A stretch of DNA of 64,000 bases from an uncultured Gammaproteobacteria bacterium (lineage in GTDB: Bacteria; Patescibacteriota; Patescibacteriia; Magasanikbacterales; JBBTQS01), in NCBI GenBank assembly GCA_964627525.1, contig CAZVIA010000001.1:8007-72006 (forward strand), given 5' to 3'. The notes under the pieces were generated by a model, which did not search any database, was not told the DNA's origin, and was given only the letters and a program-made list of their open reading frames with translations. The position numbers and the translations under genes are program-made. How positions within the stretch are numbered: the stretch's first letter is position 1; each line of letters starts with the position of its first letter. Shown here in pieces: positions 2,406-49,969 of the stretch.

Positions 2406-2417
2406 GCTAAATTTAGC
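2406..2417. promoter_or_regulatory. Palindromic motif GCTAAATTTAGC (copy 1 of 4), embedded in TTTTTTGGCTAAATTTAGCAAAAAAA
   Basis: Perfect 12-bp palindrome; copies also at 11356, 29926 and 49958, each beside a promoter and a GC-rich island. Confidence 0.5.
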
Positions 2418-2492
2418 AAAAAAAACTAGGATTTTAATTCAAAATAAAATTTCGTATTTGTATAGGTTTGAAATGTGTGTTAAGGTATTTAT

Positions 2493-3212
2493 ATGAAGTA
2501 TACTATCGGACAAACAGCAAAAATATTGGGTGTAACTGCACAAACTTTAAGGAGGTGGGAGGCTTCTGGTTTGTTAATGTCACATCGTTCAAAAGGAGGG
2601 CATAGATATTATGAAGAAGACGAAATTAGGGAATATTGCAATAGTCTTGATATTTTTAAATTGGCTTTTAATTGGACATTATCAGATACTGGTGAAAATA
2701 TATTAAAACACTTTTATTGTTCTGATTCATCAGTGTTTAAAGCAAGACTTGGCAAAATGTTAACAGAGTTACAAAAAGATTTGAGTGTTAGAAATTTAGC
2801 ATCATTAATTACAGCATCTGCAGGTGAGATAGGTAATAATTCCTTTGATCATAATTTGGGGAATTGGCCTGATAAAGCTGGAATTTTTTTTGGTTATCAT
2901 ACAAAAAAAAGACAAATTGTGTTAGCAGATCGTGGTCAAGGGGTTTTAACAACATTAAGTAGGGTAAGACCTGAATTGAAAATAGAAAAAGATGCTTTAA
3001 AGGTTGCTTTTACTGAATTTGTTACTGGTAGAGCTCCTCAACATAGGGGTAATGGTCTAAAGTGGGTTAAAAAAAATGTCTGTGATTATGATCTAGACTT
3101 GGTTTTTCAGTCAGGAAATGCCCGTTTAAAGATTGGGGGTGGTAATGAGGAATTAAAAATAAAGGAAGTAAAGAATAAAATACAAGGATGTTTATCCTTT
3201 ATTAATTATTGA
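2493..3212 (+). CDS. MerR-type HTH fused to a GHKL (histidine-kinase/anti-sigma-like) ATPase domain
   Basis: N-terminal TIGQTAKILGVTAQTLRRWE (MerR HTH). C-terminal N-box (GEIGNNSFDHN), G1 (LADRGQG) and G2 (RGNGL) boxes. Confidence 0.55.
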   Translation: MKYTIGQTAKILGVTAQTLRRWEASGLLMSHRSKGGHRYYEEDEIREYCNSLDIFKLAFNWTLSDTGENILKHFYCSDSSVFKARLGKMLTELQKDLSVRNLASLITASAGEIGNNSFDHNLGNWPDKAGIFFGYHTKKRQIVLADRGQGVLTTLSRVRPELKIEKDALKVAFTEFVTGRAPQHRGNGLKWVKKNVCDYDLDLVFQSGNARLKIGGGNEELKIKEVKNKIQGCLSFINY

Positions 3213-3213
3213 T

Positions 3214-3504
3214 ATGAAAATTGAATTAAAAAAATTTGGAAACATATTGATTTCTAGGCAATCTGGTCGTGAAGCATATAATGCATTTAAGCCAACAATG
3301 CAAAATATTGGTGAATCAGAAGAGGTTGTTTTGGATTTTGTGGGAGTTGATGTCTTGTCTCCTTCGTGGGCAGATGAATTTATAACTATTTTAGTAAAAG
3401 ATTTTTCAAATAATATTATAGTTAAAAAAACTGATAATTTGTCAGTGATTGAAACTTTGGATTTATTGCAGAAAATAAATAATTATATTTTAGAAATTAA
3501 GTAA
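3214..3504 (+). CDS. Small STAS-like (anti-sigma-antagonist-like, DUF4325-like) protein
   Basis: 96 aa, starts 1 nt after the GHKL gene. Size and profile fit STAS partner-switch proteins; tentative. Confidence 0.4.
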   Translation: MKIELKKFGNILISRQSGREAYNAFKPTMQNIGESEEVVLDFVGVDVLSPSWADEFITILVKDFSNNIIVKKTDNLSVIETLDLLQKINNYILEIK

Positions 3505-3535
3505 GTGTTTTTGTTTGTAAAATATATAAAAACCT

Positions 3536-3865
3536 ATGGATTTTGATGAATATCAAGAAAAAGCAGCAACAACTGCAAAATATGCTGACAAAGGCAATAA
3601 CTTGGCTTATCCGGTTTTGGGATTAAATGGTGAGGCAGGTGAAGTCGCAGAAAAAGCTAAAAAAATTATTCGCGACCACAATAATATAATGACTGATCAG
3701 CACAGACAAGAAATTGCAAAAGAACTTGGAGATGTTTTATGGTATGTTGCAGCTGTTACTTCTGAAATAGGTTTTTCAATGCAAGATGTTGCGCAGATGA
3801 ATATAGATAAGTTAGCATCTCGAGATAAAAGAAATATGATTCATGGAAGTGGAGATAATAGATAA
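3536..3865 (+). CDS. MazG-like nucleotide pyrophosphohydrolase
   Basis: GLNGEAGEVAE and ELGDVLWYV helices typical of the MazG/HisE all-alpha NTP-PPase fold. Confidence 0.7.
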   Translation: MDFDEYQEKAATTAKYADKGNNLAYPVLGLNGEAGEVAEKAKKIIRDHNNIMTDQHRQEIAKELGDVLWYVAAVTSEIGFSMQDVAQMNIDKLASRDKRNMIHGSGDNR

Positions 3866-3896
3866 TTTTAAAAACACAAAAATTTTTACAAACAAA

Positions 3897-4997
3897 ATGA
3901 AAAAAGTTTTCCTAACAATTTTACTAATGATCGCAGCAATAGCTGTAAGTTTGTTTGTTGTAAAAACACAAGGTCTGAATTTTTATTCTCAAAAAGTTTA
4001 TTTACAAAAAGCAGGTTTTGGTAATTTAATTTCAAAAGAAAATAAAAAACCAGATCGCCCTGACCCAACAAAAATTACAATCCAAACCTTTGGTGATTTA
4101 ATGTTGGATCGTTATGTTAGAAAAACTATTAACAATCACAGTTCAGAATATCCATTTGAGAATATTAAAGACTTGCTTGATCAGGCAGATTTTAATGTGG
4201 TGAATTTAGAAGGTACTCTCACGGATTTTCCAACAAAATCAATTCAACCAAATGACACGACTTTTACTTTTTCAAAAAGACATGCAGAAACTTTGCGCGA
4301 TTTGAATTTTACAATTACAAGTTTGGCAAATAATCATTCAAGAGATTTTGGGACAACAGGTGCACAGCAAACTAAAGAAACTTTGAAAACAAATAACATT
4401 GCTTATTTTGGCGACTATTTTAATAAAAATGAAATTTCGCATGTTGAAAATTATTCTGGCACGAAAATTGGTTTTGTTGGATATCATCAGTTAAGTAATA
4501 CAGGTTTTCAAAATGTTTTAAATGAAGTTGCGCGACTTAGAGACAAAGTAGATTTTTTGATTGTGTACGCACACTGGGGGATTGAATATGCGCGCATGAA
4601 TTTTTCAGATGCACAACAAGCTGCAGCTTATCAATTAATTGAGGAGGGTGCAGATGCGGTTGTTGGAATGCATCCGCATGTTGTTCAGCCGATTGAAATT
4701 TATAAAGGGAAAATTATTTTTTATTCTCTGGGGAATTTTGTTTTTGATCAGTTGTTTTCAGATGATGTAAGGGAGGAATTGGGTGTGCGAATTATTATTG
4801 AACCAAAACAAGTGACTTATCAATTTATTACTTTGGAAAATATTGATATTCAAATTCATGAAACAACAGGTGATAAGCGCAGAGAGTTGTTAAGAGAAAT
4901 TGCGCAAGCTTCTGAGATTTCAGATTTTTTCAAAGAGCAAGTTAAGAGAGGAGAAGTTGTGTTAAGAGAAACAGCTTTTTCAAACTTTATTAAATAA
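3897..4997 (+). CDS. CapA/PgsA-family metallophosphatase (poly-gamma-glutamate capsule synthesis-like), membrane anchored
   Basis: Signal/TM N-terminus MKKVFLTILLMIAAIAV; motifs ANNHSRDFG, VYAHWGIEY, GMHPHVVQP, YSLGNFVFDQ. The ORF-track start at 3843 overlaps the MazG gene, so the second ATG is preferred. Confidence 0.75.
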   Translation: MKKVFLTILLMIAAIAVSLFVVKTQGLNFYSQKVYLQKAGFGNLISKENKKPDRPDPTKITIQTFGDLMLDRYVRKTINNHSSEYPFENIKDLLDQADFNVVNLEGTLTDFPTKSIQPNDTTFTFSKRHAETLRDLNFTITSLANNHSRDFGTTGAQQTKETLKTNNIAYFGDYFNKNEISHVENYSGTKIGFVGYHQLSNTGFQNVLNEVARLRDKVDFLIVYAHWGIEYARMNFSDAQQAAAYQLIEEGADAVVGMHPHVVQPIEIYKGKIIFYSLGNFVFDQLFSDDVREELGVRIIIEPKQVTYQFITLENIDIQIHETTGDKRRELLREIAQASEISDFFKEQVKRGEVVLRETAFSNFIK

Positions 4998-5029
4998 AAA
5001 AATTGCTCAGATTCTAGAGCAATTTTTTT
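4994..5029. terminator. Bidirectional hairpin terminator (CapA-like gene / rpmB)
   Basis: ttgctc...gagcaa stem flanked by an A-run and a T-run. Confidence 0.5.
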
Positions 5030-5213
5030 ATACAGCGGCTACAGCTTTTTTAGTCATTGTACGAAGGCAACTTGTGCAAATTTTTGCTTTTTTACCTTCA
5101 ACTTTTTTTGACTGAAGATTAATATTAATCTTTCTAGGAGTAGCGCGCATTGATTTGCTGCGATTGTTTCCTCGACGAGGACCACGGGCGCAGACATCAC
5201 AAGTTCTAGACAT
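5028..5213 (-). CDS. rpmB: 50S ribosomal protein L28
   Basis: MSRTCDVCARGPRRGNNRS...PNLQ-like L28 signature; 61 aa. Confidence 0.85.
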   Translation of the reverse strand: MSRTCDVCARGPRRGNNRSKSMRATPRKININLQSKKVEGKKAKICTSCLRTMTKKAVAAV

Positions 5214-5312
5214 ATAATTGATTTAACAGTGTTTATAGGTTACAATATTAGAGATACAAAGTCAAGTCTCTGTGTAGCCTCGTGCCACCGGCGCTCGGCT
5301 TACCAATAAATT

Positions 5313-5921
5313 ATGGAATTATATTTAACATTATTTAGCATTGCCGTACTTATTTTTTCTGCTGTTTTTCATGAATACATGCATGGGTGGACAGCAAATC
5401 AATTAGGTGACGCAACTGCAAAATATGCTGGCAGATTAACTTTAGATCCAAGAAAGCACATAGATTTGTTTGGAACAATTTTATTGCCAATATTTTTATA
5501 CCTAATTAGTGGTTTTGTTTTTGGTTATGCAAAGCCAGTTCCATATAATCCTTATAATTTAAAATATCACAAATGGGGGCCGGCAATAGTTGGGGTGGCA
5601 GGTCCATTATCAAATTTATTTTTAGCATTGGTTTTTGGTTTTCTTGCAAGCTTAACTGCTGATATTGTTTTATTGAGATTGCTTTATATTATTGTAAATA
5701 TAAATGTATTGCTAGCAGTGTTTAATTTAGTACCAATTCCTCCGCTAGATGGTTCAAAAATTCTCTACGCACTTCTCCCAACATCAGCACAGCACATAAA
5801 AGCAGTATTAGATCGATATGGAATAATCTTAGTTTTCTTTTTTGTCTTCTTTTTATTCAAAATTTTAAGCCCAATAATCAAGTGGGTTACAGAGTTATTT
5901 TTTATGTTTAATGTTTCTTGA
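5313..5921 (+). CDS. Site-2 protease (peptidase M50) family membrane protein
   Basis: HEYMHG (HExxH) in a TM helix and NLVPIPPLDGS (LDG motif); multi-TM. Confidence 0.7.
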   Translation: MELYLTLFSIAVLIFSAVFHEYMHGWTANQLGDATAKYAGRLTLDPRKHIDLFGTILLPIFLYLISGFVFGYAKPVPYNPYNLKYHKWGPAIVGVAGPLSNLFLALVFGFLASLTADIVLLRLLYIIVNINVLLAVFNLVPIPPLDGSKILYALLPTSAQHIKAVLDRYGIILVFFFVFFLFKILSPIIKWVTELFFMFNVS

Positions 5922-5960
5922 CGTTTTGTTAAGCTGTGTTATAGTTTCAATTTTGCTAAT

Positions 5961-6266
5961 TTGGCACGGAAGTTTGGTGTTAATTTTAATGAACAAAAAG
6001 ATCCTCATATTATCCAAATGAGAAAAAAATTAAATGAATTGGGTGGTATAGATTTTAAAATTGAACAATATCCAGATGGGTCTTGGGCAGCTGAATCAAC
6101 AAATGTAGACGGTATTATTACAGGTGGCACTTATATAAAAAATATTCCAGAATCTATTAGGGATGCAACTTTTACTTATTTTGGAGTTCCTCCCTATTTG
6201 TGTGTTGATAATTTATTAAAAGCAAATAATGAGCCAGTTGTCTTGAAGCAACATGTATATGTCTAA
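5961..6266 (+). CDS. hicB: HicB-like antitoxin candidate
   Basis: YPDGSWAAES..VDGIITGG..ESIRDA matches the HicB N-domain pattern (E-DGG-Y-A-x-PDLPG...EEA); overlaps the downstream HicA. Confidence 0.4.
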   Translation: MARKFGVNFNEQKDPHIIQMRKKLNELGGIDFKIEQYPDGSWAAESTNVDGIITGGTYIKNIPESIRDATFTYFGVPPYLCVDNLLKANNEPVVLKQHVYV

Positions 6267-6456
6267 TCGTAGTTTTTCTGATATATCTCAAAAACAATGG
6301 AAAAAGGCATGTAAAAAATTAGGACTAGAGATTAAAACAAAATCAGGGAAAGGAAGTCATATTTTAGTGTGCCACCCTTTTATTAATATAAAAATTTTTA
6401 AAAAACTACTAAAGTGGGGTTTTTCTGAAGATCAAATTTGGGGTGCTTTAAATTAA
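6253..6456 (+). CDS. hicA: HicA-family mRNA interferase toxin
   Basis: KSGKGSHILVCHP (G-S-H...HP HicA signature); 67 aa; 14-nt overlap with the upstream gene. Confidence 0.6.
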   Translation: MYMSNRSFSDISQKQWKKACKKLGLEIKTKSGKGSHILVCHPFINIKIFKKLLKWGFSEDQIWGALN

Positions 6457-6526
6457 AATAAGTAAGCTTGACTAATTTCACGCACTAATATACAATATCC
6501 CCGTGGCTAAATAGCTTATTTTTTAT

Positions 6527-6943
6527 ATGCCAACAATGAATCAATTGATCCGTAAAGGACGCAAATCAAAGACGACTAAATCAAAGTCGCCTGCTTTGCA
6601 ATTTACATTTAATTCAATCAGACGTAAAAAAACTTACTTAAAACGTGGTGCTCCATTTAAAAGAGGAGTCTGTGTAAAAGTAACAACAGTTACTCCAAAA
6701 AAACCTAACTCAGCTCTTCGTAAAATTGCTCGTGTGCGTTTAAGTAATGGAATGGAAGTAACAGCATATATCCCAGGTGAAGGTCACAATCTTCAAGAAC
6801 ACAGTATTGTACTATTAAGAGGTGGTCGTGTAAAAGATTTACCAGGTGTGCGTTATCACATTGTTCGTGGTGTTTATGATACAGCTGGTGTAGAAGGAAG
6901 AAAGCAGAGTCGTTCAATGTATGGTACTAAAAAACCTAAATAA
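6527..6943 (+). CDS. rpsL: 30S ribosomal protein S12
   Basis: [13 protein letters not shown]...[10 protein letters not shown] conserved S12. Confidence 0.95.
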
Positions 6944-6948
6944 AAATT

Positions 6949-7419: not shown

Positions 7420-7459
7420 ATTAATCACAAATTTCACTCATTTTTTCACTCACTAAATT

Positions 7460-9535: not shown

Positions 9536-9577
9536 AATTCAATAATTTTTTTTAAAAATAATTTAAAAAACAAAAAT

Positions 9578-10033
9578 ATGTCTGATTACATGCGAAAAAT
9601 TTTAGATTTAATTGGGCGAACAGGGGATAGATGTATAGTAGTTCACCCAGAGACAGAAGATGCTTATGTTGTGATGGCAATTGAGGATTATGAAATGTTG
9701 GCTGATGCTGCTTCTGATTTAGAGTGGGATGATGAAGCCGAAGGAGAAGAGGATTATGATGAGGAATGGGAATTTGGTGATGATGTTGAAGATCAGGTGG
9801 TTGATGAAGTAAAAGAAAATGGAAATAATGCTTTGGAAGAATGGCGAAAGCAAATGCAAGCTTTGGCAGCACAAGATACTGACTCTGAAGAACCATTTGA
9901 GATTGCACTTTCAAGTGTAAGGCAAGATGATGAAATTAAAGGAGAAATCAAAATTGAGGAAATTCCACAAGCAGAAGCTGAAAAAGTTGAGGGAAAAGAT
10001 GATGATAGGTTTTATATAGAACCTGTAGAATAA
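9578..10033 (+). CDS. Acidic hypothetical protein with a Phd/YefM-like N-terminal segment
   Basis: N-terminal RCIVVHPETEDAYVVMAIEDYEML resembles the Phd/YefM antitoxin core; the rest is a D/E-rich low-complexity tail. Confidence 0.35.
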   Translation: MSDYMRKILDLIGRTGDRCIVVHPETEDAYVVMAIEDYEMLADAASDLEWDDEAEGEEDYDEEWEFGDDVEDQVVDEVKENGNNALEEWRKQMQALAAQDTDSEEPFEIALSSVRQDDEIKGEIKIEEIPQAEAEKVEGKDDDRFYIEPVE

Positions 10034-10055
10034 ATTAGCCAACATAAAATAACCC

Positions 10056-10205
10056 GCACACAAATAAAAAATACTTCTAAAGGGCTCTGCGTAGGGTCGC
10101 CAGCATGGTGTCCGACCGTAGGTCGGACTGGTGACCACGAGCAAAGAGCGAATGCGCCGCAGGTGCGCGTGAGTGTCCCGATAGAAGTATTTTTTATTTG
10201 TGTGC
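10056..10205. repeat. Inverted-repeat element: 23-bp perfect IR (gcacacaaataaaaaatacttct / agaagtattttttatttgtgtgc) flanking a 104-bp GC-rich core
   Basis: IR arms at 10056-10078 and 10183-10205 are exact reverse complements. The core contains a perfect hairpin gtccgac-cgtag-gtcggac. Confidence 0.6.
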
Positions 10206-10310
10206 TTTTGTTTTTATTGACTAATTTATTAGTATTTGTTACTATGTATAGTCGTCTGTTGCTAATTAGTAAGTGGCGGGTGACATTAATTGGAAAAAGG
10301 AGAGTTTGCT

Positions 10311-11189
10311 GTGACAAGGAAATATCCTGTCTCCGGCGATCTTTACAAGAGAATTGATGCAAAAATGTCTGAGCTCAAGCGAATGCTCAGACAAAAGAAA
10401 GGGTGTATATTTGACCCTGCTGATCTTTTTGTTGCTTTGCAGTACTTGATTGATGGAAAGATCACAACACAGGATTTGATTGCAGTGTCTTTGAGAAAAG
10501 ACGAGCAAGCTCAACAACCTGCTGTGCGCATGGATAAGTTGTTCCTTTCTCCTGGGGAGCAGTGGTCCTTGTTTCTTGAGTACAATGAGAATCTACCTGA
10601 TGAGTTGAGATTCACCAAAGAAGAACTTTTGGCTTTTTGTATGGAAGGTGGTAATCCTAATCCACCTGAACTACCAGAAGACGCAAGTCCTCTCACGGTA
10701 GTCCAGCTCGTTCCTTATCAAGAAACAGTAGAAAAAACCATTGCGTTCTTGCTGGGTTTTGTTCAAAGCCAAATGGAAAAGCTCGGGCTGAACTACTACC
10801 AATGGGAAGGGTATAATGATCTTTTGACCAAAAAAGATGTAATCCGTCTTCTCCCAGGTATTGAACATCCAAGAAAGTGTCTTCGTTGGGAAATCGTAGA
10901 TCTTGGTGCAAATAGAGGAAAAAAGCCTTGTGATGTGCGAAATGAGAACAGTCCTCATGCAGCAGTACTAGCTGCAGCAGGATTTCACACCAACTGGTCA
11001 ACAAGCATGGATGGAGATAAAATCCCATACGTGTTTATGCCTGGGTATCAGGTTACTGTTCCAAGTGGTGATTCGTGGCAGTACGTGCCTCACATCTGGT
11101 TCCATCAGCACGATCGCAGGCTCAGGATCGGCTGCAGCTGGGATGGCTACTGCAACCAGGGTTGGGCTGTTGTGGTGGTTGCGATTTAG
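10311..11189 (+). CDS. Hypothetical protein (ORFan) on a GC-rich insert
   Basis: GTG start with AAGGAG 9 nt upstream (the ORF track used TTG at 10290). Higher GC and GC3 than neighbours. C-terminal Cys/Trp/His-rich motif; no recognisable domain. Confidence 0.5.
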   Translation: MTRKYPVSGDLYKRIDAKMSELKRMLRQKKGCIFDPADLFVALQYLIDGKITTQDLIAVSLRKDEQAQQPAVRMDKLFLSPGEQWSLFLEYNENLPDELRFTKEELLAFCMEGGNPNPPELPEDASPLTVVQLVPYQETVEKTIAFLLGFVQSQMEKLGLNYYQWEGYNDLLTKKDVIRLLPGIEHPRKCLRWEIVDLGANRGKKPCDVRNENSPHAAVLAAAGFHTNWSTSMDGDKIPYVFMPGYQVTVPSGDSWQYVPHIWFHQHDRRLRIGCSWDGYCNQGWAVVVVAI

Positions 11190-11355
11190 GGGAGTAATAT
11201 AGAACTTGAAGCTAGGAAACTAGCAACTTGGAAATCCTTGGTTCTTGTAACTTGAACCTTGGATTTCTTTTTTATATTTTGAACTTTGGGTTTTTAGAAT
11301 TTAAATATTGGTGCACCTTTAAAAAAATTATGTAAAAAGTTTTTCTAAAAATTTC

Positions 11356-11367
11356 CCTAAATTTAGC
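11356..11367. promoter_or_regulatory. Palindromic motif copy 2 (cCTAAATTTAGC, 11/12)
   Basis: TTTCCCTAAATTTAGCAAAAAAA, about 30 bp upstream of the tuf promoter. Confidence 0.4.
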
Positions 11368-11393
11368 AAAAAAATCATTCACACATAAAGCAC

Positions 11394-11423
11394 TTGACAC
11401 CATATACTCCAAAATGCTATAAT
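11394..11423 (+). promoter_or_regulatory. tuf promoter TTGACA-N18-TGC-TATAAT-CCCA
   Basis: Consensus -35 and -10 with extended TGn and a CCCA discriminator. Confidence 0.7.
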
Positions 11424-11512
11424 CCCACCGCTTTTATTAAGCTTTTATTAACTTAAATAAGCGATTAGGCAAGCTTAGGCAATGCCGTCGCAGTAAGATA
11501 AAGACCATTCAT

Positions 11513-12706
11513 ATGGCAGAAATGTTCGACAGAAGTAAACCACACGTTAACGTAGGTACAATTGGTCACGTTGACCATGGTAAAACAACCTTAACCGCTG
11601 CTATCTTAAAAGTGCTTGGTGCACAAGGAAAGATTGCACAGGATAAATCAGTAGATCAAATTGACGCTGCGCCTGAAGAGCGCCAGCGTGGTATTACAAT
11701 TGCTACAGCTCATGTTGAGTATGAAAGTGATGCACGTCACTACGCTCATGTTGACTGTCCAGGACACGCAGATTATGTAAAAAACATGATTACAGGTGCC
11801 GCGCAAATGGATGGAGCTATTTTAGTAGTTTCAGCAGCAGACGGTCCTATGCCTCAAACTCGTGAGCATATTTTGCTTGCACGTCAGGTTGGTGTACCGC
11901 ACATTGTTGTATTTTTAAACAAAGTTGATCAAGTTTCAGATCCAGAATTGCTTGACTTAGTAGAAGAGGAAGTAAGAGACTTGTTAAATAAGTATGAATT
12001 CCCAGGAGCTGATACACCAATTATTCGTGGTTCAGCTTTGAAAGCTCTTGAAAATCCAGGGGATGAAGCTCACGCAAAACCAATTACAGATTTACTTGAT
12101 GCTTTGGATTCATTTATTCCAACACCAGAACGTGATGTAGATAAACCATTTCTTATGCCAATTGAGGATGTTTTCTCAATTGAAGGGCGTGGTACAGTAG
12201 TTACTGGTCGTATTGAACGTGGAATTGTAAAAGTTGGTGAAGAAATTGCAATTATTGGAATGGGTGAGGAAGTAAACAAAACAACAGTTACTGGTGTAGA
12301 AATGTTTAATAAACAACTTGATCAAGGTCAAGCTGGAGACAATGCTGGTATTTTGTTGCGTGGTGTTAAAAAAGAAGATGTACAGCGTGGTCAGGTTTTG
12401 GCAGTTCCAGGATCTGTTACACCTCATACAGAGTTTGAAGCAGAAGTATATGCTTTAAGCAAAGAAGAGGGTGGACGTCACAAACCCTTTTTCAAAGGTT
12501 ACAAACCTCAGTTTTATATGCGTACAACTGATGTAACTGGAGAAGTAGAACTTCCAGAAGGAACAGAAATGGTTATGCCTGGTGACACTGCAAACTTGAA
12601 GATCAAATTGATCGTTCCAGTTGCTCTTGAAGAAAAGCAAAGATTTGCTATTCGTGAAGGTGGACGAACAGTTGGTGCAGGTGCAGTAACAAAAATTTTG
12701 AAATAA
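11513..12706 (+). CDS. tuf: Elongation factor Tu
   Basis: [10 protein letters not shown] and DCPGHADY motifs; 397 aa. Confidence 0.95.
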
Positions 12707-29501: not shown

Positions 29502-29798
29502 TTAGGCTGCTTCGTCGATTTGGAGCTGGAAGAGCTCTCGCTCTGCCATCTTGAATCGGAACAGTGCCGTTCCGGGAATGGTCGCTCCTTGGACACGCTC
29601 GATGATCGAACGTTCCGTAAGAATTTCCATTCCTTTATGGAACTCTTCCAGATCAGTACTCTGACCCACAGAACTAGGGACGAAATCCCTGTCTGTGTCG
29701 AGCTGCACTACGAAGCGCGGCTCGCCAAGGGACTGGGCAGTCCCTCGTGCCAAAATGAACAGATCGACAAGCAGGTTGCCTGCGAGCGGATTCAGCAT
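29502..29798 (-). CDS. Hypothetical small protein (98 aa) on a GC-rich insert between scpA and scpB
   Basis: GGAGGG SD 6 nt before the second ATG; own consensus promoter and terminator; GC and GC3 well above neighbours. Confidence 0.5.
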   Translation of the reverse strand: MLNPLAGNLLVDLFILARGTAQSLGEPRFVVQLDTDRDFVPSSVGQSTDLEEFHKGMEILTERSIIERVQGATIPGTALFRFKMAERELFQLQIDEAA

Positions 29799-29865
29799 GT
29801 TTCCCTCCATAGAAACTTAGCTGAGGTGATCGTCGTGCAACGGCCTTTCCACTGCAAAACAGAAT

Positions 29866-29895
29866 ACTATAGCATATTTTGATGATTTTGTCAAG
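29866..29895 (-). promoter_or_regulatory. Minus-strand promoter TTGACA-N18-TGC-TATAGT
   Basis: Reverse complement reads cttgacaaaatcatcaaaatatgctatagt. Confidence 0.6.
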
Positions 29896-29925
29896 TCTTA
29901 GGTTTACACATGTAAGATTTTTTGG

Positions 29926-29937
29926 CTAAATTTAGCG
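29926..29937. promoter_or_regulatory. Palindromic motif copy 3 (TTTTTTGGCTAAATTTAGCGAAAAA) between divergent promoters
   Basis: Perfect 12-bp palindrome. Confidence 0.5.
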
Positions 29938-29976
29938 AAAAATGCAAGTTTTTAAAAAATAAGATATAATACTAAC

Positions 29977-30528
29977 ATGTCAAAACAATCTGAAATAGAA
30001 TCAATATTATTTGTAAGTAGTGGAGCTTTGTCTATGACAAAAATAGTCAAGATTTTAGGATTGAAAAAACCTGAAGTAAAAGATTTAATTACAAAATTAA
30101 AAGAAAAATGGAACACTCCAGAATCTGGGGTTCAGTTAATAGAAAATGGAGAAGAAGTGCAATTAATGTCTAGTTCAGAAAATACAGAAGTTGTGCAAGC
30201 GTTTTTAAAAGATGAAACTTCTGGTGAATTAACAAAGCCCGCATTAGAAACACTTTCAATAATTGCGTATCGCCAGCCAATTACAAAACCAGAATTAGAA
30301 CAAATACGTGGAGTGAATTGCAGTTTGATTTTGCGTAATTTATTATTAAGAGGTTTGGTTGCAGAAAAAGAAGATTCAAAAAGACTTCAAACAGTTTATT
30401 GTGTTGCAATGGATTTTATAAAATTATTAGGATTGGAATCTGTTGAACAGTTGCCAGATTTTGAAAAATTAAGACAACATGAATATGTGGAGGATGTTGT
30501 TGCAGGTTTAAAAGAAAACAAAGAATGA
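29977..30528 (+). CDS. scpB: Segregation and condensation protein B
   Basis: IESILFVSSGALSMTKIV winged-helix ScpB. Confidence 0.85.
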   Translation: MSKQSEIESILFVSSGALSMTKIVKILGLKKPEVKDLITKLKEKWNTPESGVQLIENGEEVQLMSSSENTEVVQAFLKDETSGELTKPALETLSIIAYRQPITKPELEQIRGVNCSLILRNLLLRGLVAEKEDSKRLQTVYCVAMDFIKLLGLESVEQLPDFEKLRQHEYVEDVVAGLKENKE

Positions 30529-36406: not shown

Positions 36407-36465
36407 AACGAAATTAAGTCTAACATTTGTAAAAGGTTTTGTCTATATAGTTTTAAAAATCTTTT

Positions 36466-36504
36466 TTAAAAAATTAGACCCCTTGGTGGTTGAATACCAA
36501 GGGG
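36466..36504 (-). terminator. Terminator of the tRNA-Leu 3' extension
   Basis: ccccttggt...accaagggg hairpin followed by a T-run on the minus strand. Confidence 0.6.
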
Positions 36505-36506
36505 CC

Positions 36507-36710
36507 TCTGGGACAATCTAATGTTGAGCCTATCAGATGGGATTGCACACCACCCCATGCCCACCGACGCTTTTTACAAGATTATTGCTGGCTCAGACAA
36601 CAACCCGATTACGTCTGCCACAAGCACGCGGCTATTCAAGGATGCACAATTAGTTTGCTAGGGTGTGTGCACCTTAGCATGTCTGTGAAAAGTTGTCAAG
36701 TAGTTTCTTA
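36507..36710 (-). ncRNA. Candidate ~200-nt structured RNA co-transcribed downstream of tRNA-Leu (unknown identity)
   Basis: GC-richer ORF-free stretch between the tRNA 3' end and a strong terminator; the overlapping + ORF 36490-36852 runs through the tRNA and is spurious. Confidence 0.3.
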
Positions 36711-36797: not shown

Positions 36798-36873
36798 GAG
36801 TGAATCTTATAAAGTAATGTGGAAAAGCATAGCTCAAAACGCAATTTTTTGATATACTTTGAACAGCAATATT

Positions 36874-37641
36874 ATGTCACAAATCATTGCAGTTGTCAAC
36901 CAAAAAGGGGGAGTCGGTAAAACAACAACCGCGGTAAACCTTGCAGCAGCTTTGTCTCAGCAAGGTAAGTTTGTTTTACTTGTTGATTTGGATCCACAAG
37001 GAAATGCTACAAGTGGTCTTGGTGTTGATCACAGAACTATTGAGCATGGAGTTTATGATGCAATTATTGGCGCAAAACCAATTCATCATGTTGTGCAAGA
37101 AACAGCGCACGAAGGTTATAGACTTGCACCTGCAACAATGAATTTATCTGGTGCAAATATTGAACTTGTTGATGTGGAGGACAGAGAGTTTCAACTTTAT
37201 AAAGTTTTAATGGAAGTAAAACATGCATACGACTTTATAGTAATTGATTGCCCACCTTCACTTGGTTTGTTAACGATCAATGGTTTAGTTGCTTCAGATA
37301 AAATTTTAATTCCAGTACAAGCAGAGTATTATGCTTTAGAAGGTTTGGGGCAATTGTTGCATACAATTAATTTAGTAAAAGAAAATCTAAAGCCAGAACT
37401 AGAAGTGTTAGGAGCAATTTTAACAATGTATGACACTCGCAATAGATTGTCTCAAGATGTTTTTGAAGAATTATACAGATATTTTCCAGACACAATTTTT
37501 AGAAGTATAATTCCAAGAACAGTTCGTTTGGCTGAAGCGCCAAGTTTTGGAAAAACAATTTTTAATTATGACCCAAGTGGTAAGGGGGCAAAAGCATATC
37601 GTAGATTATCTCGCGAAGTGCTTGATGTGCTTGATCGTTAA
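36874..37641 (+). CDS. parA: ParA/Soj partition ATPase
   Basis: IAVVNQKGGVGKTTTAVNL deviant Walker A. Confidence 0.85.
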   Translation: MSQIIAVVNQKGGVGKTTTAVNLAAALSQQGKFVLLVDLDPQGNATSGLGVDHRTIEHGVYDAIIGAKPIHHVVQETAHEGYRLAPATMNLSGANIELVDVEDREFQLYKVLMEVKHAYDFIVIDCPPSLGLLTINGLVASDKILIPVQAEYYALEGLGQLLHTINLVKENLKPELEVLGAILTMYDTRNRLSQDVFEELYRYFPDTIFRSIIPRTVRLAEAPSFGKTIFNYDPSGKGAKAYRRLSREVLDVLDR

Positions 37642-37647
37642 TAAATT

Positions 37648-38502
37648 ATGGCATTAGGAAGAGGGCTAGGATCATTGATCCCACAAAAACAAAATAACGC
37701 AACTGCTACTACTGTGACTGAAGTAAAGTCACACGGGCTTTTGCATGTGCCAACAAAAGATATAGATGTTAATCCTGAACAACCGCGAAAAGTTTTTACA
37801 AAAGAAGCTTTGGATGATTTAGCAGCATCAATAAAAGTACATGGAATTTTACAACCGCTTTTGGTTGTGGAAAAAGCAGATGGAACATATGAATTAATTG
37901 CTGGTGAAAGGCGATTGCGCTGTGCACAAAATCTTGGTTTGCCAACAGTGCCAGTTGTTGTAAAAGAAATTACTGATCAGCAGGAAAAATTAGAAGTTGC
38001 CTTGATTGAAAATATTCAACGTGATGATTTAAATATTATTGAAGAGGCTTGTGCTTATGAACGTTTGATGAATGAGTTTAATTTAACTCATGATCAGGTT
38101 GCACAAAGAGTTGGAAAGAATAGAAGTACAATTAGTAACACAATTAGATTATTGAATTTGCCAGATCAAATTCAAAAAGCATTGATAGACAAACAAATTA
38201 GCATGGGTAAGGCGCGTGCATTGTTAGGTGTGAAAGATAAAGAAGAGCAAAAAAGAATGTTTAAAACAATGATGGGTGCTGGCGTAACTGTTAGAGATGT
38301 TGAGCAAGAGGTTTCGCGTAAAAGACAAAGCACAAGAGGTGTGCGTCGTCGTGATCCAAATATTATTGATAAAGAAAACAAGCTTCGGGAAAAGCTTGGT
38401 ACAAAAGTTCGTATTACTAGAACAGGGAATAGGGGAAAAATTGAAATTGAATATTATTCAGACGAAGAATTAAATAGTCTTAGCGATCTTCTTCTGTCTT
38501 AA
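37648..38502 (+). CDS. parB: ParB/Spo0J
   Basis: GILQPLLV, GERRLRCAQNLG ParB box and HTH. Confidence 0.85.
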   Translation: MALGRGLGSLIPQKQNNATATTVTEVKSHGLLHVPTKDIDVNPEQPRKVFTKEALDDLAASIKVHGILQPLLVVEKADGTYELIAGERRLRCAQNLGLPTVPVVVKEITDQQEKLEVALIENIQRDDLNIIEEACAYERLMNEFNLTHDQVAQRVGKNRSTISNTIRLLNLPDQIQKALIDKQISMGKARALLGVKDKEEQKRMFKTMMGAGVTVRDVEQEVSRKRQSTRGVRRRDPNIIDKENKLREKLGTKVRITRTGNRGKIEIEYYSDEELNSLSDLLLS

Positions 38503-39985: not shown

Positions 39986-40014
39986 TTGACAAAATTGTCC
40001 AGGTGTGCTATATT
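39986..40014 (+). promoter_or_regulatory. Promoter TTGACA-N17-TGC-TATATT in the rel-topA intergenic region
   Basis: cttgacaaaattgtccaggtgtgctatatt. Confidence 0.5.
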
Positions 40015-40020
40015 GTAACT

Positions 40021-40079
40021 GGTGATGTTCGGGTAATACCGAATGCTAGGGGAAAGCCGCCGGGCTACGGCGGTTTTTT
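40021..40079 (+). ncRNA. Candidate ~60-nt small RNA
   Basis: Consensus promoter, two hairpins (ttcggg-taata-cccgaa; gccgcc-gggcta-cggcgg + T6). Confidence 0.3.
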
Positions 40080-40098
40080 CTTTGTTTAATTTTAGGAC

Positions 40099-42492: not shown

Positions 42493-42549
42493 AAAATAAA
42501 AAAGATATGTCTTTGATGAGCATAATGCATAGTGTTTTTTGTGTCAAAT

Positions 42550-43887: not shown

Positions 43888-43895
43888 TGTCTGGG

Positions 43896-44774: not shown

Positions 44775-44795
44775 ATATTTTTTATTTTAAAAATA

Positions 44796-44825
44796 GGGCG
44801 AAATTTGCAAAGCAAATTTCGCCCC
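44796..44825. repeat. Palindromic hairpin element gggcgaaatttg-caaagc-aaatttcgcccc; bidirectional terminator (copy 1)
   Basis: Near-identical copy at 55871-55899. Confidence 0.6.
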
Positions 44826-44841
44826 ACAATTATTTTTCAAT

Positions 44842-45390: not shown

Positions 45391-45410
45391 ATGCCTCCTA
45401 ATTAACTAAT

Positions 45411-46850
45411 TTAATATTGTTTACTTTTTACAATTATAATCTCAATTGGTGTTCCTTCAAAATTAAACTCCTCGCGCAATTTGTTTTCCAAATAATGAAC
45501 ATAAGAAGTGTGCAAAGAAGTTCTGTGTTTAACAATCAATTCAAAAGTTGGTGGTTCAACATCAATTTGTTTAAATGACAAAATTTGTGGTTTGCGAGTT
45601 CCTTTTCCACGAGAAGGTTTGTGTTTGCGAGTAACTTTGTGAATCCACTCTTCCAAAATTTCATCTTCGATTCTTAATTTGCGTGCTTCAGCAACTTTTT
45701 CAACTATTTCAAATAATTGGTGAACGCGAAAACCAGTTTTTGCACTTACAAAATAAATAGGCGACCATTTCATAAAAGCAAAGTAGTGTTCCATTAGTTT
45801 TTTAAAACGTGAGCGATTTTCTTGAGAATGATCTTCAATCAAATCCCATTTATTTAAAACCAAAATTATTCCAACGTGTCTGTTTTCCAACAAACTTGCC
45901 AAATGTTTTTCTTGAACAGATTCTGGGTCAGTTGCATCTAAAACCAATAATACAACATCAGCACGTTCTAAAGATTCAATACTTGCACTAACTCCCATTT
46001 TTTCCAAACCACCTTTGACTTTGCTTTTTCTACGAATTCCAGCAGTGTCTATAATTTTAAATTTTTTCTTACCAAAACCAACGTCTAAGTCAAAAGCTTC
46101 ACGAGTAGTATGCGCTGTTTCGCTTACAATTGCTTCTTGCGCACCAACTAAAGCATTTAACAAAGAAGACTTTCCAACATTTGGTTTTCCAAAAATCGCA
46201 ACGCGCGCAATATAATCTTGCCCAGTTTTAGTCTTAGTCCCAGCTTCGCCCTTAGTCCCAGCTTCGCCTTCAACCACAACTTCACCAACAGCATCAGTCT
46301 CAACTTTTTTACCACGACGTTTTTTTGGCAAAACTTCAACTGCAGCATCTAACATATCTCCAACTCCACTTCCATTTGATGCACTTACCAAAAATATTTC
46401 ACCAAAACCAAGTGAGTGCCAAGCATCTTCAAAAGATTTTTTACGCCAACGTTCTGTGTCTGCTTTATTACCAACTAACACCACTGGTTTTTGACTGCGA
46501 CGCAAACGTTTAGCCAATTCTTTTTCTTGTGGCAAAATTCCAACCTGTGCGTCAACAACAAATAAAATTACATCAGCTTCTTTAATTGCACGTTTAACTT
46601 GTTCCATTACTTCTTTTTCATAAGGAATGTCATCATAAGTTAAACCACCTGTATCCACAATATTAAATTTACGACCACACCAATTCATTTCAGCAATATT
46701 ACGAGTGCGAGTTGTTCCTGCAATATCAGAAACAAGCGCTTTGTGGTCTTCAACCAAGCGATTATATAAAGTGGACTTTCCAACATTTACACGACCAACA
46801 ATTGCAATAGTTGGATTTGGATTTTTTCTTCTACGAGACATAATTTTCAA
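45411..46850 (-). CDS. der: GTPase Der/EngA (two GTPase domains + KH-like)
   Basis: Two GxxxxGKS and DTxG sets; an internal 18-nt direct repeat encodes GEAGTK-GEAGTK in the inter-domain linker. Confidence 0.85.
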   Translation of the reverse strand: MKIMSRRRKNPNPTIAIVGRVNVGKSTLYNRLVEDHKALVSDIAGTTRTRNIAEMNWCGRKFNIVDTGGLTYDDIPYEKEVMEQVKRAIKEADVILFVVDAQVGILPQEKELAKRLRRSQKPVVLVGNKADTERWRKKSFEDAWHSLGFGEIFLVSASNGSGVGDMLDAAVEVLPKKRRGKKVETDAVGEVVVEGEAGTKGEAGTKTKTGQDYIARVAIFGKPNVGKSSLLNALVGAQEAIVSETAHTTREAFDLDVGFGKKKFKIIDTAGIRRKSKVKGGLEKMGVSASIESLERADVVLLVLDATDPESVQEKHLASLLENRHVGIILVLNKWDLIEDHSQENRSRFKKLMEHYFAFMKWSPIYFVSAKTGFRVHQLFEIVEKVAEARKLRIEDEILEEWIHKVTRKHKPSRGKGTRKPQILSFKQIDVEPPTFELIVKHRTSLHTSYVHYLENKLREEFNFEGTPIEIIIVKSKQY

Positions 46851-46851
46851 T

Positions 46852-48360
46852 TTATTCTGTTTCTGTGTAGTCTGCCCCTAATATTATGAGTATATCAGTA
46901 TTTTTGTCAACTTGGGTAGGTAGGTTGGCTGATAACATTGAAGTATCTGCGGGCAAAGTAGAATTTTGCAAAATTTCATCAATAGTTGACGCAATTGGCA
47001 TATTTAACGCCTCACTAATCTGTTTTACAGAATCTACATGCTTTCCATTAGATAAATCAAAAACCGCACTCGTACTATAAGGTCTATCATCAGCATTATC
47101 TACTTTTGTAATTTGAAAACCCTGATTTTCTAGTTCAGCTTTTGCTTTTGCAGCTAAACCAACAACCCAAGTTCCATTTTGAATTTCAATAAAAGCATTT
47201 CCTTCAGACAAAACAACTGCTTTAACTTCACCATCAGATTCTACTATTTGATCAGACAAAGAAGTTTTTCCAGTTAAATTTCCTCCATCAAAAATTCCAT
47301 CAATCACACGTTGTATTTGTCTAAAAGTTCTATCACGTGGCAAAAGCATATACAAATTTGCACCACTACCATTTGCTAGCAATCCACCAACAGCATCAGA
47401 CAAACCAAAACTAATAATATTTTCTGTATCTAAATCATCTGCAATGCGCACCAATTGCAAACCAGTTCCAACATCAATATTTGTATCAATATTTTCAGAT
47501 AAGGTTTTTCGTAAATTATTTAACTTAGCTGGATTTAATAAAGTTGATAAAGACAAAACTTTATTTTTAAAAGCAACAATAACTTTTTGTTGACGACGTG
47601 ATCGTGCAAAATCAGAACCTTCACCATTTGTTCCGTGTCGTGATCGTGCAAACATTAAAGCAGTTTCTCCATCCATGTGTTGTGCGCCTTCATCGAATTT
47701 TACAGTTTGATAGCGATGATCATTAGTAGGGTAGGCACTATCCACAAAAGAATTATCTACATTAATATCAACACCACTAACATGATCAATAAGTTTTTCA
47801 AAACCAGAAAAATCCATGCGTACATAATAATGAATTGGCTGACCAGTCATTTGTTCAATAATGCGTATTGCTAAATCAGCGCCATGTCCAGGATCTTTCA
47901 TTTCTCCAAAAGCATTTGCATGATTAATTTTTCGCCAACCATAACCAGGAATTGGAACAGACAAATCACGCGGAATTGAAATTAAAGAAATTTGATTTGT
48001 GGATGGTTTAATACTTGCCAAAATAATTGTGTCTGTTAAAAACGCACCATCATGCCCAGAACCACCCATGCCTAAGAACAACAAATTAATACGATCAGCT
48101 TTTACACCTTCCAAACGTTTTTCATCACTTAAAATCAAATCGCGCAAAGTTCCAAAAAATCCTTTGTGAGAATCCTTACGATACCAACCTTCATCATTAT
48201 TAATAGGGGATGAAAAAACAACGCCACCAACCCATGTTACAATTACCAACACAGCAACCACTAATGAAAAAAACAGCCCTGTCTTTCGAAGGACACGAGA
48301 AAATCCAGATTTAGGACTTTTCTGGCGATTGTTTCTTTGTGCTAAAAAATCATTATCCAT
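46852..48360 (-). CDS. LytR-CpsA-Psr (LCP) family protein, membrane anchored
   Basis: N-terminal TM; TDTIILASI...IPRD LCP core. Confidence 0.75.
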   Translation of the reverse strand: MDNDFLAQRNNRQKSPKSGFSRVLRKTGLFFSLVVAVLVIVTWVGGVVFSSPINNDEGWYRKDSHKGFFGTLRDLILSDEKRLEGVKADRINLLFLGMGGSGHDGAFLTDTIILASIKPSTNQISLISIPRDLSVPIPGYGWRKINHANAFGEMKDPGHGADLAIRIIEQMTGQPIHYYVRMDFSGFEKLIDHVSGVDINVDNSFVDSAYPTNDHRYQTVKFDEGAQHMDGETALMFARSRHGTNGEGSDFARSRRQQKVIVAFKNKVLSLSTLLNPAKLNNLRKTLSENIDTNIDVGTGLQLVRIADDLDTENIISFGLSDAVGGLLANGSGANLYMLLPRDRTFRQIQRVIDGIFDGGNLTGKTSLSDQIVESDGEVKAVVLSEGNAFIEIQNGTWVVGLAAKAKAELENQGFQITKVDNADDRPYSTSAVFDLSNGKHVDSVKQISEALNMPIASTIDEILQNSTLPADTSMLSANLPTQVDKNTDILIILGADYTETE

Positions 48361-48422
48361 GATATCGGCTAACGAGACAATTATACTTTAATAGGTGGTC
48401 CGAGACAAATTTTTATAAAAAA

Positions 48423-49877
48423 CTATTCACTCAATTTCATACCTCTAGAACCACTTTCAGTCCAACCACTTGGAGTAATTCGTACAAATTCTGCATTTTC
48501 CTGCATTTCCTCAATTGAATGTGCTCCACAATAACTTAAACCACTTTGAACTCCACGTGCCAACCAATCAATCACATCTTGTACAGGGCCTTTATAATCA
48601 ACTAAAGAAGAAATTCCCTCAACATATGCATTCATGCGTTTGCGAATAATTGAATTGGTTTGAGTTTCTTTGCGCACATGTGAGCTTTCATAAGACGCGC
48701 TTCCAATGTATTTTTTATAATTACGACCGTCTTTTTTAATAATCATTCCCGGAGCTTCATCTGTTCCAGCAAAAAATGATCCAGAATAAACAGAAGACGC
48801 ACCAATAGCCAAAGCTTTAGCTGCATCTCCAGGTAGTTTCATACCACCATCAGCAGAAACAGGCACGCCATATTTTTTTGCTTCGCGAGCAACATTCATA
48901 ACAGCTGTAAATTGTGGCACGCCAGCACCAGCTGTAATTCTAGTTGTGCATACAGGAGATGGGCCAATTCCTATTTTCAAACCATCTGCACCAGCTTCAA
49001 TCAAATCTCGCGCTGCTGCAGCAGTTCCAATATTTCCAACCATTACATCAATTTCAAAAATAGATTTTAACTCCTTAAGGCGTTTAATTACTAAATCAGA
49101 ATGTGCATGAGCAATATCTAAAACAATTGCATCAGCACCAGCGCTTATCATTGCTTGTGCCCGCTCAATAGTATCTTTAACACCAACACTAGCTCCTACT
49201 CGCAAACATCCGTTTTTATCACGAGTTGCATCAGGCCAATTTTCTAGTTTCTTAATATCTTGTGTTGTAATCAAACCACTTACTTTTCCATGATTATCTA
49301 TTAAAGGAAGTTTTTCAATACGATTAAAGTGTAGGATTTTTTTGGCTTCATCTAAAGAAATTCCTGGAGCAGCAGTTATTAGTTTTTGGCGAGGTGTCAT
49401 AACCGATGTGATTTTTTGAGATAAATCATATTCAAACAAATAATCTCTTGAAGTAAAAATTCCTACCAATTCATCTCCGTTTTTTACCAACAAACTTGTC
49501 ACACCTTTTGTTCTCATTATATTAACTGCATCTTGAATAGTTGCATGAATACTTACAGATAAAGGTTTGTTAATAACATAGCTTGTACTTCGTTTGACTA
49601 GCTCAACCTCAGCAGCTTCTTCTTCAATTGTCCCAAATTGATGGATTACACCTAAACCACCTCCACGTGCCATTGCAATTGCCATTTTGTGTTCAGTAAC
49701 AGTTGCCATGTTTGCACTTACAAAAGGTTTTTTTAGTTTTATGTTTTTTGTGAAAAAACTTTCTATGTTTGCTTCTGAGCGAGAACTAAGTGGAGTGCGT
49801 TGTGGCACTAATAAAACATCATTATATGTAAGTGCAAGAGGGAAGTTTGCTGGATTTTGGTGATTTGGGTTTTCCAT
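48423..49877 (-). CDS. guaB: IMP dehydrogenase
   Basis: CBS pair; GIGPSPVCTTR active-site loop. Confidence 0.9.
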   Translation of the reverse strand: MENPNHQNPANFPLALTYNDVLLVPQRTPLSSRSEANIESFFTKNIKLKKPFVSANMATVTEHKMAIAMARGGGLGVIHQFGTIEEEAAEVELVKRSTSYVINKPLSVSIHATIQDAVNIMRTKGVTSLLVKNGDELVGIFTSRDYLFEYDLSQKITSVMTPRQKLITAAPGISLDEAKKILHFNRIEKLPLIDNHGKVSGLITTQDIKKLENWPDATRDKNGCLRVGASVGVKDTIERAQAMISAGADAIVLDIAHAHSDLVIKRLKELKSIFEIDVMVGNIGTAAAARDLIEAGADGLKIGIGPSPVCTTRITAGAGVPQFTAVMNVAREAKKYGVPVSADGGMKLPGDAAKALAIGASSVYSGSFFAGTDEAPGMIIKKDGRNYKKYIGSASYESSHVRKETQTNSIIRKRMNAYVEGISSLVDYKGPVQDVIDWLARGVQSGLSYCGAHSIEEMQENAEFVRITPSGWTESGSRGMKLSE

Positions 49878-49957
49878 ATTTTTTTATTTATTTAATTTTA
49901 TATTGCACAAACATCTTAACATTTTGTAAAAGTATGTGAAAGTAGGTCTGTTTTTTG

Positions 49958-49969
49958 GCTAAATTTAGC
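49958..49969. promoter_or_regulatory. Palindromic motif copy 4 (TTTTTTGGCTAAATTTAGCTATTTTTT)
   Basis: Perfect 12-bp palindrome 30 bp upstream of the island promoter. Confidence 0.5.

Follow-up and report, generated by a model that had tools for sequence, protein, structure and literature searches.

What does a short, perfectly symmetric DNA word do when it recurs between genes, and beside several of the strongest promoters, in the reduced genome of a Patescibacterium? The question is raised by the 12-bp palindrome GCTAAATTTAGC, which occurs in three perfect copies (2406–2417, 29925–29936, and 49958–49969) and in a fourth with one mismatch (11356–11367, reading CCTAAATTTAGC) in the 64,000-base stretch of DNA analyzed here, referred to as the window. 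The window is AT-rich (36% GC) and Magasanikbacteria-like, with an elongation factor Tu (EF-Tu) that is 87–91% identical to proteins from Candidatus Magasanikbacteria and other Patescibacteria metagenome-assembled genomes (MAGs). It carries the str/S10/spc ribosomal operons, tuf, scpAB, parAB, topA, two HU genes (52619–52903 and 52996–53397), rny, and infB. The same DNA was recovered in several independent assemblies (JGI, ENA, NCBI, and Logan) and is thus not an assembly artefact. Almost nothing is known experimentally about transcription regulation in Patescibacteria (the candidate phyla radiation, CPR), and very few regulators are recognizable in these organisms. We propose that the palindrome is a candidate cis-regulatory site, and we put the chance at about even that it serves as an upstream operator or activating sequence for a dimeric DNA-binding protein within the bacterium's own repertoire.

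Palindrome copies and the promoters beside them

Dinucleotide shuffles of the window yielded 0.32 matches on average, and none of 100 shuffles reached four, in agreement with a first-pass annotation of this DNA that had noted an excess over chance. That annotation placed the copies at 2406, 11356, 29926, and 49958; the third starts at 29925, and the other three positions stand. GCTAAATTTAGC is the sole 12-bp palindrome that recurs in the window. When we searched with an idealized 26-bp form (TTTTTTGGCTAAATTTAGCCAAAAAA), the four copies were recovered at 1, 2, 6, and 6 mismatches and the next-best match at 8 of 26; the family is sharp, without a graded series. The extended form TTTTTTGGCTAAATTTAGC(A/G)AAAAA, which had been said to accompany every copy, is present in copies 1 and 3 only (the extended region is AAATTTCCCTAAATTTAGCAAAAAAA in copy 2 and TTTTTTGGCTAAATTTAGCTATTTTTT in copy 4). 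Past ∼26 bp the flanks of the four copies cannot be aligned, and the conserved unit is therefore the site and not a duplicated segment. We gave no weight to an agg-t-t/c-tg block that had been described as shared, its position not being conserved (40, 17, and 0 bp from the T-run). The copies and one possible further site are as follows.

2399–2424, no strand: copy 1, TTTTTTG-GCTAAATTTAGC-AAAAAAA, center 2411.5, between two TGTATAGGTTT repeats and upstream of a MerR/BldC-like helix-turn-helix (HTH) gene
11349–11374, no strand: copy 2 (one mismatch), AAATTTC-CCTAAATTTAGC-AAAAAAA, center 11361.5, upstream of the tuf promoter
29918–29943, no strand: copy 3, TTTTTTG-GCTAAATTTAGC-GAAAAAT, center 29930.5, in the divergent region between ORF C (minus) and scpB (plus)
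49951–49976, no strand: copy 4, TTTTTTG-GCTAAATTTAGC-TATTTTT, center 49963.5, in the divergent region between the IMPDH gene (minus) and GC-rich island D (plus)
53449–53460, no strand: possible degenerate fifth site (weak), AGTAAATTTAGC, 10 of 12 positions, 23.5 bp upstream of the −35 hexamer of the rny promoter (53478–53506)

All four copies are intergenic, in a window where intergenic DNA amounts to 5,715 of 64,000 bases (8.9%); the probability that four of four would fall there by chance is 0.089⁴, or ∼6 × 10⁻⁵. No further copy was found in 14 kb of additional flanking sequence (four copies in 78 kb in total).

Two independent scans located five near-perfect sigma-70-type promoters with a TG extension in the window, at 11394 (+), 29894 (−), 36899 (−), 39986 (+), and 49999 (+). 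The palindrome lies upstream of three of these five, with its center 32.5–36.5 bp from the −35 hexamer and on either strand. Were four sites placed at random in intergenic DNA, the binomial probability that three of them land 30–40 bp ahead of a −35 hexamer belonging to these five promoters would be ∼6 × 10⁻⁷. Start-relative positions given below are predictions which assume that the −10 hexamer spans −12 to −7, and GC1, GC2, and GC3 denote the GC content at the three codon positions of an open reading frame (ORF). The promoters and the genes behind them are as follows.

11394–11423, plus strand: tuf promoter, TTGACA-18-TGcTATAAT, 12 of 12 against consensus, conserved in the relative L185; copy 2 centered 32.5 bp from the −35 hexamer, predicted position −68.5 (start predicted at 11430)
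11513–12706, plus strand: tuf (EF-Tu), predicted to be transcribed from the copy-2 promoter
29866–29894, minus strand: promoter of the 98–102-aa GC-rich ORF C, TTGACA-17-TGcTATAGT, 11 of 12, 94% identical over 32 bp to the first cassette promoter of L185 (5602–5633); copy 3 centered 36.5 bp from the −35 hexamer, predicted position −71.5 (start predicted at 29859)
29502–29810, minus strand: ORF C, 98–102 aa, GC3 0.59, predicted to be transcribed from the copy-3 promoter
49999–50027, plus strand: promoter of a leader and GC-rich island D, TTGACA-17-TGcTATGAT, 11 of 12; copy 4 centered 35.5 bp from the −35 hexamer, predicted position −70.5 (start predicted at 50034)
50356–51774, plus strand: ORF D, 472 aa, GC 64%, GC1/2/3 of 0.63/0.46/0.83, downstream of the copy-4 promoter
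2458–2486, plus strand: weak, inferred promoter of the MerR-like gene, TTGTAT-17-TGtTAAGGT, read from sequence by analogy with homologous loci

The claim that a strong promoter stands 20–60 bp from each copy is borne out for copies 2, 3, and 4 (12/12, 11/12, and 11/12, all TG-extended) and fails for copy 1, where there is no consensus promoter and only the weak candidate was found. At copy 3, where the annotation had listed a divergent small-ORF/scpB promoter, the strong promoter is on the minus strand and drives GC-rich ORF C, not scpB. By analogy, copy 1 would be located at about −81.5 from the putative leaderless start of the MerR-like gene (ATG 2493), one helical turn further out. The predicted centers are −68.5, −70.5, and −71.5, a spread of 3 bp, together with −81.5; these values depend on inferred starts, and no such phasing is seen in other genomes. 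Two of the top promoters have no palindrome, and these lie upstream of tRNA-Leu and of a ∼70-nt unit resembling a small RNA (sRNA). Both scpB (start region 29965–29979) and the MerR-like gene (start region 2478–2495) are apparently leaderless, with the −10 hexamer ending 6 nt before the ATG.

A proposed upstream binding site and the occurrence of the palindrome in other genomes

An upstream protein-binding site is the most economical reading of these observations and the most likely one, and it would be an element of an ordinary kind. The palindrome has strict dyad symmetry and lies upstream of the promoter core and between genes in four of four copies, as do class-I-type operators and upstream activating sequences. 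A dimeric protein would recognize it as duplex DNA, a mode of recognition favored by the weak and inconsistent hairpin energies of the copies. The bound protein could touch RNA polymerase or bend the upstream DNA, in the manner of class-I activators and Fis-type sites (at approximately −61, −71, and −82); alternatively, it could repress. In either case, tuf and two foreign-looking GC-rich ORFan genes might be co-regulated. As a candidate operator the palindrome is sharply defined: its upstream position is fixed on three of the region's strongest promoters, that of tuf among them. It also offers a way into the control of highly expressed ORFan genes of foreign composition in genomes of this kind.

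The first-pass annotation had suggested an operator for a global dimeric regulator or an architectural site akin to UP elements and IHF sites. An operator or architectural upstream site is in line with the dyad symmetry, the intergenic location of all copies, and the near-constant distance of ∼70 bp that separates the site from the predicted start at three consensus promoters, whichever strand they are on. The word "global" is not supported: the additional flanking sequence adds no copy, and five relatives have no such site upstream of tuf. A UP element or IHF site in the strict sense does not fit: the positions (−64 to −77) are outside the usual UP range, and there is no WATCAANNNNTTR.

Several observations weigh against an upstream operator. 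We used EF-Tu to fetch five relatives (L185, L188, L190, L207, and L208; 87–91% EF-Tu identity), and GCTAAATTTAGC with up to two mismatches is absent within ∼10 kb of tuf in all of them; intergenic sequences of the relatives were also read directly. L185, the closest of the five, has kept the tuf promoter (51 bp, 90% identity), though the palindrome is absent there. Elsewhere the distance from palindrome to −35 hexamer varies from 17 to 46 bp without phasing, and the 19-mer identical in three copies is also found in unrelated contexts: the metagenome matches listed are dominated by Campylobacter, where it lies in coding sequence, and by repeat families that are apparently not bacterial. The copies in the window are all-or-none, four near-perfect sites without a degenerate series, whereas the sites of a regulon are usually graded. 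The promoters that bear the palindrome already match the consensus, so that the need for an activator is not obvious, and their transcription starts are predictions from −10 hexamers. We found no candidate binding protein for the palindrome.

Traces of the arrangement can be seen in other genomes. L185 has a degenerate CCAAATTTAGG 64 bp upstream of the tuf −35 hexamer, and, 28 bp ahead of a promoter that matches that of copy 3 at 94% identity over 32 bp, a degenerate TCTAATTTTAGA. The Uhrbacteria MAG L008 carries the exact 19-mer 17.5 bp upstream of a promoter of the copy-3 type; the 32-bp promoter module of copy 3 is found in L008 with an exact palindrome upstream and in L185 with a degenerate one. 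A scan of genomes for the exact 19-mer returned 54 loci, about half of them Campylobacter coding orthologues, and no genome with at least three copies, which places the species of the window outside the GTDB representatives. Some 10 of the occurrences are in Patescibacteria MAGs, where the 19-mer is usually intergenic, often fully palindromic (GGCTAAATTTAGCC), and sometimes tandem. It precedes TTGACA/TATAAT promoters in the Patescibacteria MAGs L008, L027, L031, and L048 and in L043 and L058, which are labelled Gammaproteobacteria; fully palindromic or tandem pairs are found in L014 and in L040 and L050 (both labelled Gammaproteobacteria). Four matches in viral contigs resemble coding sequence. 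We found no gene that is common downstream of the 19-mer across genomes, and the matches in public collections define no coherent cross-genome family. Judged from sequence, this pattern lends weak support to a lineage-wide binding specificity with rapid turnover of sites; a low-complexity word that arose independently several times would account for it equally well. Rfam contains no family for the palindrome or for the GC-rich islands, at either gathering or E-value threshold. A literature search with the sequence string returned nothing relevant, and one for Patescibacteria, promoters, and palindromes led only to unrelated TIGR-Tas papers.

In Buchananbacteria-type MAGs (L014, 5340–5400; L082, 6489–6545; L094, ∼1500–1550), two palindrome copies lie ∼32 bp apart beside a tandem TGTCTAGACATGTCTAGACA palindrome, the cluster being placed between tRNA genes; it looks like a multi-operator control region.

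GC-rich islands, neighboring genes, and alternative readings

The best-surviving alternative is a recently spread short repeat or an insertion boundary: a ∼26-bp palindromic element or recombinase site would mark the insertion of foreign GC-rich cassettes together with promoter modules, the promoter position being a by-product. We regard this as unlikely, although it deserves serious weight. The window holds about nine GC-rich segments, and half of them have no palindrome. Those near palindromes differ in kind: a conserved structured RNA, a 292-aa ORF, the 98–102-aa ORF C, and a 2.3-kb island with the 472-aa ORF D. The observation that every copy abuts a GC-rich segment is accurate in that all copies are near one, but the segments are heterogeneous and the palindrome-free half has to be counted too. 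The link between islands and palindrome runs mainly through promoters, and the association was not reproduced in other genomes.

In favor of insertion, three copies share an identical 19-mer with no degenerate copies and with unrelated flanks, the orthologous positions in five relatives are free of the palindrome, and each copy is within ∼90 bp of the end of a GC-rich transcription unit. Codon usage in ORFs C and D is foreign (GC3 0.59 and 0.83, compared with 0.16–0.21 in native genes), and extra genes interrupt both scpA-scpB and fusA-tuf. Within 21 kb of L185 there are just two CTAAATTTAG-like 10-mers, one on each side of an array of six cassettes, and this points toward a boundary function, although two such matches are close to the chance prediction (∼1). 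Against it, the "island" of copy 1 is a conserved noncoding RNA (ncRNA) that is present in the relative L207 without the palindrome; the islands at ∼36.5, 40.0, 55.4, and 56.7 kb lack the palindrome; the far ends of islands C and D show neither a matching half-site nor a direct repeat; and there is no gene for a transposase, an integrase, or a REP-associated tyrosine transposase (RAYT) among the window proteins. The boundary reading also leaves the constant distance of 33–37 bp to the −35 hexamer unexplained. The earlier suggestion of an insertion target or boundary sequence is not supported, nor is it refuted. If the palindrome were a recently spread repeat, it would mark fusA-tuf and scpA-scpB as insertion hot spots.

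The island beside copy 1 (2186–2336) is a candidate structured RNA of ∼150 nt downstream of ndk, with its own promoter (TTGTAT-17-TGcTATACT) and terminator and a folding z-score of −4.15. The candidate is kept downstream of ndk in L207 (∼390–540) with compensatory-looking changes in its stems, and it has no Rfam match; as far as the sequence tells, the island is a resident ncRNA and not an insertion. A contig (L193, ERZ23499059 scaffold_17122) that was compared with window positions 1–2500 encodes an identical Ndk, followed by the same ncRNA and palindrome. Its upstream genes differ (a cyclic-nucleotide-binding (cNMP-binding) protein, a response regulator, and a 584-aa protein, in place of the 1836-aa protein of the window), which points to a strain-level rearrangement upstream of ndk.

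In this lineage, GC-rich ORFan genes gather in a hot spot between fusA and tuf (9578–11189 in the window). The gene for an acidic "RTGDR" protein is conserved upstream of the cassettes and is present in the window, in L188, and in L190. In L185 (GCA_964554065.1, CAZKMQ010000003.1, 4980–10000), six GC-rich ORFan cassettes, four of them paralogous, lie between the acidic-protein gene and tuf and share a repeated 5′ block (...TTCACAAAGCAATTTGTGGAA...) and 3′ hairpin blocks. In the window, a GC-rich element at 10050–10215 directly follows the acidic-protein gene and has a perfect 24-bp closing stem (folding free energy −79.8 kcal/mol, z = −7.9). It could be a giant terminator, an ncRNA, or an insertion resembling a miniature inverted-repeat transposable element (MITE) with 24-bp inverted ends.

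Within the window, codon usage is most foreign in precisely the two ORFs that stand behind palindrome-bearing promoters; the 292-aa ORF has a GC3 of 0.42. For ORF D we detected no homologue among 5.8 billion proteins (word-indexed search) or 1.84 billion representatives (phmmer). The ORFans, including ORF C and the 292-aa ORF, matched no family in Pfam (even at E ≤ 10), NCBIfam, or PADLOC. AlphaFold2 models of ORF D and of the 292-aa ORF from single sequences were unusable (predicted local distance difference test, pLDDT, ∼34). More unusual than the palindrome is the finding, in a CPR genome, of GC3-rich ORFans that have no homologues and stand under consensus promoters.

In island D (∼50200–52480), ORF D has clear codon periodicity and is followed by ∼840 nt of non-coding sequence at 45–50% GC and then by a terminator. 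Between the copy-4 promoter and ORF D, the region 50034–50141 contains a 19-codon ORF, MFLCSLIKSGFSSSNPLFV (50082–50141), which overlaps a terminator-like hairpin with a T-run (∼50103–50140); together they may form a leader-peptide attenuator ahead of ORF D. Two other GC-rich segments were noted, both without an Rfam match. The consensus promoter at 39986 is followed ∼35 nt later by a strong terminator (40048–40082), defining a ∼70-nt sRNA-like unit between relA and topA (39986–40095). On the minus strand, a 300-nt stretch of 52% GC (36407–36710) follows tRNA-Leu; its terminator is at 36507–36476.

A second alternative is that the palindrome is the operator of the adjacent MerR/BldC-like HTH protein, which would regulate itself through copy 1 and control the three other promoters. 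The features concerned are as follows.

2493–3212, plus strand: MerR/BldC-like HTH protein gene, 239 aa, downstream of copy 1, in a conserved pair with a DUF4325 gene (3214–3504)
2349–2359 and 2459–2469, plus strand: two TGTATAGGTTT direct repeats that flank copy 1, a motif separate from the palindrome family

This is the only recognizable transcription factor in the window, and copy 1 sits 75 bp upstream of its start codon. We nevertheless consider the idea improbable. The pair of MerR/BldC-like (∼240 aa) and DUF4325 (∼96 aa) proteins has thousands of homologues across Patescibacteria; these MerR-like genes are always paired with a DUF4325 gene, in variable, defence-island-like neighborhoods, and the direct repeat TGTATAG(A/G)TTT is common to their upstream regions, none of which carries the palindrome. 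Exactly two such repeats are present in the window, and they flank copy 1. Classical MerR operators lie within a promoter spacer of 19–20 bp, but here the palindrome is 33–46 bp upstream of the −35 hexamers and the spacers are 17–18 bp, and we rejected a MerR-type operator on these grounds. The TGTATAGGTTT repeats are probably the autoregulatory operator of the MerR-like protein, and the protein is probably not the one that binds the palindrome. The TGTATAG(A/G)TTT repeats are conserved upstream of the homologous genes in L197, L199, L201, L204, and L205. Genes for Fic, PIF1, RadC, NucS-like, and HsdM proteins are found in the MerR-like/DUF4325 neighborhoods.

A self-contained foreign circuit appears similarly doubtful: homologue-less ORF C (98 aa) or ORF D (472 aa) would encode the palindrome-binding protein, and the site would then have been wired onto the host tuf promoter. 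An acquired element would then have placed its own genes and the translation capacity of its host, a Patescibacterium of reduced genome, under common regulation.

It is very improbable that the palindrome is a non-canonical parS-like site, that is, a centromere or loading site for ParB (37648–38502) or for SMC-ScpAB. A perfectly conserved palindrome in few copies around parAB and scpAB would suit such a role, the canonical parS is absent from the 64 kb at up to three mismatches, and the half-site TTTAGC equals that of the operator TTTAGCSGCTAAA of KorB, a ParB-family protein. However, the KorB operator has its half-sites in the reverse order, a fixed spacing to promoters is unexpected for a centromere, and the palindrome is unrelated in sequence to the 16-bp TGTTNCACGTGNAACA. 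In our alignment the HTH region of ParB has parS-type residues (R173, T179, G201, N178, and R204), so that a preference for canonical parS is expected; the roles of these residues in parS specificity have been described (PMC7383237). The window has a canonical chromosomal ParA/ParB pair (36859–38502), yet no parS-like site within three mismatches.

A purely structural element (a cruciform, an RNA hairpin or terminator, or curved A-tract DNA without a specific protein) can largely be set aside, since the T6 and A6–8 tracts that flank copies 1 and 3 are not conserved in copies 2 and 4, the folds of an AT-rich palindrome that could extrude a cruciform upstream of very active promoters are weak and copy-dependent (−1.9 to −5.6 kcal/mol, z from −0.1 to −2.7, with z = −0.09 for copy 4), and the T-run precedes the stem on both strands, as it does not in an intrinsic terminator. 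We also rejected an intrinsic (Rho-independent) terminator on the stem of 4–5 bp and the 5′ T-run on both strands, the terminator scan not listing the palindrome, and a sigma-54 promoter (GG-N10-GC; TGGCAC-N5-TTGC), TTGGCTAAATTTAGC having the spacing GG-N9-GC.

Comparison with known systems

Repetitive extragenic palindromic (REP) sequences and bacterial interspersed mosaic elements (BIMEs), mobilized by RAYT, resemble the palindrome in being short palindromic repeats that are strictly intergenic, with identical copies and unrelated flanks. The palindrome differs from them in having no GTAG head, in being perfect and very short rather than an imperfect 20–40-nt stem-loop, and in occurring in four copies in 78 kb, upstream of promoters and not between convergent gene ends. 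We rejected membership in the REP/RAYT group, given the missing GTAG, the low copy number, and the absence of a Y1 transposase among the window proteins.

The KorB operator O_B, TTTAGCSGCTAAA, is found on IncP plasmids and is bound by a ParB-family protein. It shares with the palindrome the hexamer TTTAGC/GCTAAA and is likewise a perfect palindrome in few identical copies at variable distances upstream of promoters. The half-sites of the palindrome are, however, arranged tail-to-tail (GCTAAA|TTTAGC) and not head-to-head, there is no central base, and the ParB of the window is parS-type. The 13-bp O_B (TTTAGC-S-GCTAAA) was thus rejected as an identification, with the half-site order inverted and the central base missing.

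The upstream sites of class-I activators and of Fis offer the closest positional parallel to the preferred reading of the palindrome as an upstream protein-binding site. CRP binds at −61.5 or −71.5, and Fis site I is located at −71 of E. coli rrnB P1, with a Fis site also upstream of tufB. In sequence the palindrome fits neither CRP (consensus TGTGA-N6-TCACA) nor Fis (consensus with an odd-length 15-bp G...C core); unlike in the CRP and Fis systems, no crp or fis gene was seen here, and the starts are predicted. As in those systems, the site is dyad-symmetric, works in principle in either orientation, is present in few copies per region, and lies ∼70 bp upstream of the start (∼81 in one copy) of strong promoters that include that of a translation-factor gene.

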